From: Escherichia coli O127:H6 str. E2348/69
GTDB lineage: Bacteria; Pseudomonadota; Gammaproteobacteria; Enterobacterales; Enterobacteriaceae
Direction: 5' to 3' (one strand)
Length of the DNA: 64,000 nt
Assembly: GCF_000026545.1 (NCBI RefSeq)
Contig: NC_011601.1
The notes under the pieces are model-generated. The model saw only the letters and a program-made list of their open reading frames with translations, was not told the DNA's origin and ran no database searches. Numbering within the stretch: the stretch's first letter is position 1; each line of letters opens with the position of its first letter. Shown piece by piece: positions 32,507-32,762 of the stretch. A program made the translations under genes and the position numbers.

Positions 32507-32762
32507 GAGGAAATCAGAATGGCGGTCAAGTTAGAAGTAATTATCTACACCGATGAAAATGGCACGCTTCGTGTCAGGAGTATGGGGGCTATTGATAAAA
32601 AGGATTTACGGATGAAGAGGTCGGTGTAAGACAACGGTTATGGGAGGTAATGAATCAAACTCTTAATAAAGAATTTAACGGCGTTGATTTATTTTCTGTT
32701 GGCGTGGAACCCTGCGCGCATAACACACATTAATCTGTAAATATCACTGAGGTAATTTAATT

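Follow-up and report, generated by a model that had tools for sequence, protein, structure and literature searches.

Two adjacent short ORFs in the Mu-like prophage of Escherichia coli E2348/69 are parts of one 71-codon early-region gene split by a single-nucleotide deletion

The semi-essential early region of phage Mu runs in the order repressor, ner, transposase A, B ATPase, kil and small accessory genes, and the same order is found in the Mu-like prophage of E. coli E2348/69, with ner-like and kil-like genes at the corresponding places. A DUF3164 gene is common to this prophage, BcepMu, phiE255 and the transposable phages of Pseudomonas. BcepMu (L029) differs in that it has the DUF3164 gene but no equivalent of the small gene that lies upstream of it in relatives of the E2348/69 element. 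The product of that small gene is represented by WP_000279302.1 and by PHROG 7438, and the locus described here resembles it in its position between the kil-like and DUF3164 genes, in its ribosome-binding site (RBS) and in its stop codon; once repaired, its protein is 100% identical. It differs in that the E2348/69 copy is one A short and split, and RefSeq annotates it neither as a CDS nor as a pseudogene. The locus also shares the hallmarks of homopolymer frameshift pseudogenes in resident prophages, namely an indel of one base within a short run of a single nucleotide, restriction to one lineage, intact orthologues elsewhere and similar independent events in other lineages. Against that class nothing about it is unusual, and it is notable only for lying in a prophage that is otherwise annotated as intact.

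Position of the interval in the Mu-like prophage

We analysed a 64,000-nucleotide stretch of the chromosome of E. coli O127:H6 str. E2348/69 (contig NC_011601.1; hereafter the window), which carries a Mu-like prophage of about 35.7 kb (approximately positions 27945-63660) that interrupts the host gene eutC. Positions 32200-32800 of the window were 100% identical in three complete assemblies of this EPEC strain. The remaining prophage genes look intact in the annotation, which indicates that the element is not in general decay. On the host side, eutC (ethanolamine ammonia-lyase beta subunit) is annotated as two pseudogene fragments (approximately 27507-27944 and 63661-64000) with the prophage between them, and eutA, just outside the window, is also disrupted, by ISEc13.

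An original prediction, made from the letters of the window, described two very short ORFs with strong RBS motifs in a gap after the MuB-like gene, and read them as possible micro-proteins or the gap as a possible untranslated regulatory element. Both ORFs exist, on the forward strand and in the interval that RefSeq leaves blank (Table 1). The gap does not follow the MuB-like gene directly; a kil-like gene, annotated in RefSeq, lies between the two.

Several features of the surrounding early region were also noted. A second interval without RefSeq annotation lies at 34975-35202, between a DUF2786 gene and the next CDS, and contains a 75-aa ORF with an ATG start (MAFKLLSVTEAIYQ...); a locus-tag number is skipped there, as it is at 32507-32762. 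A 72-aa hypothetical gene on the reverse strand (33955-34173) lies antisense inside the rightward early operon, and AVS0151 has a different reverse-strand gene of 261 nt at the matching place. Some relatives have one or two additional small genes (252 nt and 192 nt) separating kil from the 71-aa gene (L003, 1823-2276; L011 and L014, 220-411), and in these relatives the 71-aa gene overlaps the gene upstream by 11 nt. In GCA_002319635 (L021, 1-352) the usual kil end is also the end of a 375-aa call carrying AAA_22 domains, apparently a fusion of MuB and Kil or the result of a lost stop codon in MuB.

Table 1. Features of the early region of the E2348/69 prophage, in window coordinates.
Feature	Position	Strand	Remarks
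Repressor	28247-28894	-
ner-like HTH gene			between the repressor and the MuA-type transposase in gene order
MuA-type transposase	29313-31355
MuB-type AAA ATPase	31374-32267
kil-like gene (upstream neighbour)	32282-32506	+	74 aa; phrog_2679 'Kil protein for bacterial septation inhibition', E 5.7e-35; RefSeq CDS WP_000361028.1
Native Shine-Dalgarno (SD) GAGAGGA of the 71-aa gene	32505-32511	+	overlaps the kil stop codon TGA (32504-32506)
Interval without RefSeq annotation	32507-32762		256 nt
Frameshifted pseudogene of the 71-aa early-region protein (PHROG 7438 / WP_000279302.1)	32519-32733	+	215 nt, versus 216 nt in intact relatives
ORF1 (first tiny ORF)	32519-32629	+	ATG; 36 aa, of which 1-28 are native and the last 8 (DLRMKRSV) out of frame, ending at a premature TAA
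G5 run	32584-32588	+	intact in the window; frameshift site in other lineages
A5 run	32597-32601	+	where 1 nt is deleted; every intact type I relative examined has A6
Rest of the native frame	32602-32733	+	codons 29-71 and stop; out of frame with the start codon
GGGAGG taken as the RBS of ORF2	32642-32647	+	coding sequence (W42-E43-V44); 2 nt from the internal ATG
ORF2 (second tiny ORF)	32650-32733	+	ATG; 27 aa, equal to native M45-H71; begins at an internal Met codon and ends at the native stop
Intergenic spacer	32734-32762	+	29 nt; holds the SD of the DUF3164 gene (GAGG, 32749-32752); 93-100% identity in 12 of 12 relatives examined
DUF3164 gene (downstream neighbour)	32763-33407	+	214 aa; PF11363, E 1e-80

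One 71-codon gene split by the loss of one adenine

The interval is carried by 57 of 5,426 complete E. coli genomes, and the three E2348/69 assemblies annotate nothing there. Relatives annotate one 216-nt CDS, encoding 71 aa, between the kil-like and DUF3164 genes, in an interval of 257 nt as against 256 nt in E2348/69. In AVS0151, which is 98-99% identical to the window at the DNA level, the annotated CDS is WP_000279302.1, a protein whose exact sequence occurs on 599 public contigs. Alignment with the intact copies revealed a sole gap of 1 nt, inside an A run, where relatives read GAT AAA AAA GGA and the window reads GAT AAA AAG GAT; re-insertion of one A produced a 216-nt ORF whose product is exactly WP_000279302.1. 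In E2348/69 the frame breaks after codon 28, no uninterrupted ORF of 70-71 codons is left, and the conserved N-terminus (MAVKLEVIIYT) and conserved C-terminus (...NTH or ...NVH) fall in separate frames. The repaired protein matches phrog_7438 from end to end (residues 1-71 of 71; E 4.5e-21), and its gene has the expected place directly upstream of the DUF3164 gene. The 12 relatives examined all had an intact ORF of 216 nt (protein identity 46-100%), and a single indel accounts for the break in E2348/69. The interval thus holds a frameshift pseudogene of the ordinary kind, unannotated in RefSeq, whose family of hypothetical proteins is already known. As judged from sequence, the E2348/69 copy is a pseudogene of the PHROG 7438 family and not a functional member of it.

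The identical A5 allele recurs in all three complete E2348/69 assemblies and, in independent samples, on 24 or more contigs (sources GCA_049977505, SRR23557173, SRR1577784 and ERZ761546); the indel is real. Two of the samples carry extra SNPs, indicating that the allele has circulated in a lineage. The blank in RefSeq across the 256-nt interval could be taken to mean that it holds a sequencing artefact or an untranslated regulatory element (a small RNA, leader or attenuator). The recurrence of the same deletion in independent material stands against an artefact. A regulatory element, the second reading offered by the original prediction, is unsupported: substitutions concentrate at third codon positions, a search of the gap against Rfam gave no match at E <= 1, a scan of it gave no promoter-like or terminator-like site, and RNA folding of it gave no excess structure. 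We regard an artefact or a regulatory element as extremely unlikely.

The RBS motifs predicted for the two ORFs differ in quality. The GAGAGGA of ORF1 ends 7 nt upstream of the ATG, which is good spacing, and the 20 nt preceding the start of the 71-aa gene are identical in every relative in which kil directly precedes it. The GGGAGG of ORF2 forms a strong anti-SD duplex (-11.5 kcal/mol), as had been supposed, but its spacing is not that of a correctly placed site. Of 660 ORFs of 20-60 aa counted across the window, just 4.8% had an SD core at -16 to -5, so two SD-like motifs before adjacent ORFs on the same strand exceed what chance would give; the excess arises because both motifs belong to one real coding sequence.

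These motifs are also what would speak for two independent functional micro-proteins, or for a variant of that idea in which the gene is split into two peptides that reassemble. The RBS of ORF1 is good, the SD-like motif of ORF2 is strong, and SNPs have arisen on the split allele in at least two samples, a sign that it has persisted for some time. The split is limited to the E2348/69 lineage, however, and elsewhere the region is one ORF under purifying selection. Neither the ATG nor the SD of ORF2 is conserved in the family, Met45 being Ile in the Salmonella and Citrobacter homologues, which do not keep the GGGAGG either, and type II alleles reading LHDVIKE at the start of ORF2, with neither ATG nor GGAGG. 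Of the 36 residues encoded by ORF1, 8 are a meaningless by-product of the frameshift, and its last 8 codons and stop are present in frameshifted alleles only. The break falls in the loop between a predicted hairpin and a predicted helix, and one of the two SNPs found in the split lineage replaces Gly by Asp in ORF2. The exact 36-aa product of ORF1 has been called on at least 24 public contigs, and the 27-aa sequence of ORF2 was not found as a called product in a collection of 15 billion proteins. A conserved start and RBS together with purifying selection on each ORF separately, the signature of two micro-proteins, was not found. Comparison with related Mu-like prophages, rightly proposed with the original prediction as the test of its ORFs, revealed them to be conserved only when fused, as one 71-codon ORF. 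The gap does code for a small early-region protein, but the two ORFs are pieces of one broken gene, and independent or reassembling micro-proteins are very improbable. The observation behind the prediction was largely correct; its micro-protein and regulatory-element readings were not.

Other frameshift alleles, switching and recoding

Further frameshift alleles of the gene were identified in other lineages. In STEC346 (L015, 401-644) an independent frameshift has shortened the G5 run, at the position of window 32584-32588, to G4; the allele encodes a different 36-aa product that was called on 8 contigs, and RefSeq has no CDS at this place in STEC346. In GCA_054201635 and GCA_002319635 (L020 and L021, 537-794) the G5 run has become G6, with a 54-aa C-terminal call that occurs on 13 contigs. 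The G5 run lies 10 nt upstream of the A run, and three independent frameshifts within 15 nt could hint at more than neutral decay. We also noted a type II allele with a T deletion on one metagenome contig of 2.5x coverage, which may be a sequencing error.

A clustering of this kind is what a contingency switch would produce, with the G5 and A6 runs turning a costly early gene ON and OFF and E2348/69 as an OFF variant: A6 to A5, G5 to G4 and G5 to G6 make three independent OFF alleles in two runs. Phase-variable loci usually use runs of 7 or more, and tracts of 5-6 nt are short for such a locus. Intact copies are heavily dominant (599, 276, 254, 163 contigs and more; the three frameshift alleles have roughly 24, 8 and 13), type II alleles are without both runs, and any random indel would be expected at homopolymers. 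Among the alleles seen there was no sign that the length changes reverse. We give very little credence to a switch.

The gene might alternatively still work at a reduced level through recoding, either by a -1 slip of tRNA-Lys on A_AAG or by RNA polymerase adding an A. The zero frame at the site reads GAU_AAA_AAG_G, and a -1 shift after AAG would yield the wild-type D-K-K-G-F-T, residue for residue; the site also contains A_AA.G, the most shift-prone tetramer in E. coli (PMC4066793). In having the A_AAG tetramer, and in that a -1 shift would restore the wild-type protein, the site is like the -1 frameshift sites of dnaX, IS3 and IS911 (A_AAA_AAG). It differs from them in three respects: U_AAA_AAG is not a proper X_XXY_YYZ heptamer and provides the A_AAG tetramer only; on the downstream side, the 91 nt from the site onward fold like shuffled sequences (-9.2 kcal/mol, z = 0.28); and the two-frame arrangement is not conserved, relatives being plainly in frame, which argues against selection for a frameshift signal. 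For transcriptional slippage to be efficient, a run longer than A5 would be needed. Tetramer motifs without a stimulator give about 0.15% frameshifting against a background of 0.11% (PMC4066793), and by these numbers the expected efficiency at the site is near background. Recoding is thus highly unlikely, and the reading we prefer is that the two ORFs are one prophage gene, split by the 1-nt deletion and non-functional in this strain, which as a whole we consider very probable.

The intact gene and its expected state in E2348/69

In intact relatives the gene is under purifying selection. The window and AVS0151 differ at 3 nucleotides, all of them third-position synonymous in the 71-codon frame, AVS0151 and E423 differ at 1, 0 and 9 sites in codon positions 1, 2 and 3, respectively, and dN/dS among type I alleles is 0.03-0.2. 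Between allele types dN/dS is 0.4-0.8 with dS saturated (0.55-1.04), values that do not point to positive selection. The gene is also a mosaic. Relatives (L005-L012, set against window 32519-32733) share 93-100% identity over about 45 nt at the start of the gene, about 25 nt at its end and the spacer of 29 nt, whereas in type II alleles the ~145 nt in the centre lower the identity of the whole ORF to 64-67%. In relatives with kil immediately before the 71-aa gene, the flanking kil and DUF3164 sequences show 93-99% identity. P0022, a database protein, is a type II/type I recombinant. This pattern looks more like recombinational exchange of old alleles than rapid evolution in place.

Homologues of the 71-aa protein were found in a narrow range of elements. 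The only Pfam match of the protein was DUF7430 (E 0.042; 14 bits, where the cut-off is 27), an assignment rejected since the score is under the Pfam cut-off, and NCBIfam gave no match. No match was found in 50,697 phage records, either by blastn of 32200-32800 in distant mode or by tblastn of the protein, and classical Mu and sequenced phages thus appear to have no homologue. A profile search of 1.84 billion representative proteins recovered only about 6 true clusters, all of small enterobacterial proteins; profile matches to long proteins were composed of many short stretches, look spurious and were rejected. A literature search on the E2348/69 Mu-like prophage, covering sources other than the strain's genome paper, found nothing relevant. 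Distant Mu-like elements (MuB 57% and DUF3164 72% identical) carry a homologue of 70-71 aa at the same place with 31% identity, which overlaps the start of the DUF3164 gene by 11 nt (L026, 3001-3216; L027, 3001-3216; L028, 870-1082). That the adjacency has been kept in such distant elements suggests that the 71-aa gene and the DUF3164 gene are a functional pair.

AlphaFold2 predicted a beta-hairpin (residues 4-24), a helix (residues 32-53) and a low-confidence tail for the 71-aa protein (mean pLDDT 69.6), and the predicted fold had no significant structural neighbour in BFVD or the PDB. The position of the gene suggests an accessory gene of the early operon whose expression would accompany that of kil when the prophage is induced. 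Our best guess for its product is a small host- or partner-binding modulator that may act with the DUF3164 protein. A bolder proposal is that the gene encodes a fast-swapping host-interaction partner of the DUF3164 protein, and that the recurrent homopolymer frameshifts are a selected switch-off in some hosts and not neutral decay; we think this improbable. It builds on the constant place of the gene directly upstream of DUF3164, often with an overlap of the DUF3164 start, and on the exchange of its central 145 nt between alleles with both flanks 97-99% identical. If it were true, E2348/69 would be a natural knock-out for learning what the pair does.

The state of the gene in E2348/69 can be pictured as follows. 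A single transcript would cover the 71-aa gene together with its neighbours kil, upstream, and the DUF3164 gene, downstream. In the E2348/69 lineage the A6 homopolymer of the 71-aa gene has lost one A, most likely by replication slippage. On induction, ribosomes would start at the native RBS and ATG (32519), read 28 native codons, enter 8 aberrant codons and terminate at 32627-32629. With its native RBS and start codon undamaged, the gene probably yields the 36-aa peptide upon induction; the peptide would hold the hairpin only. The last 43 codons, encoding the helix and the conserved C-terminal tail, are no longer joined to the start, which would leave a null gene. Because the helix and tail are lost from the product, we infer that the gene is non-functional in E2348/69, and any peptides still made from it would be expected to have no role. 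Weak re-initiation at 32650, yielding the 27-aa fragment, is conceivable because the ORF1 stop lies 20 nt before an internal ATG with a strong SD-like motif, albeit one at poor spacing. Loss of function would be in keeping with the decay of an accessory gene that a resident prophage can do without, although the intact annotation of the other prophage genes speaks against decay of the element as a whole.

These results carry a caution for genome annotation, in that adjacent micro-ORFs with convincing RBS-like motifs may be the debris of one frameshifted gene; comparison with close relatives resolves such pairs within minutes. A pseudogene feature would be appropriate at 32519-32733 in E2348/69, a much-used EPEC reference. 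The constant pairing of the 71-aa gene with DUF3164, together with its strikingly mosaic alleles, offers a minor lead, and E2348/69, as a putative natural null mutant, could help to assign a function to the 71-aa gene/DUF3164 pair.
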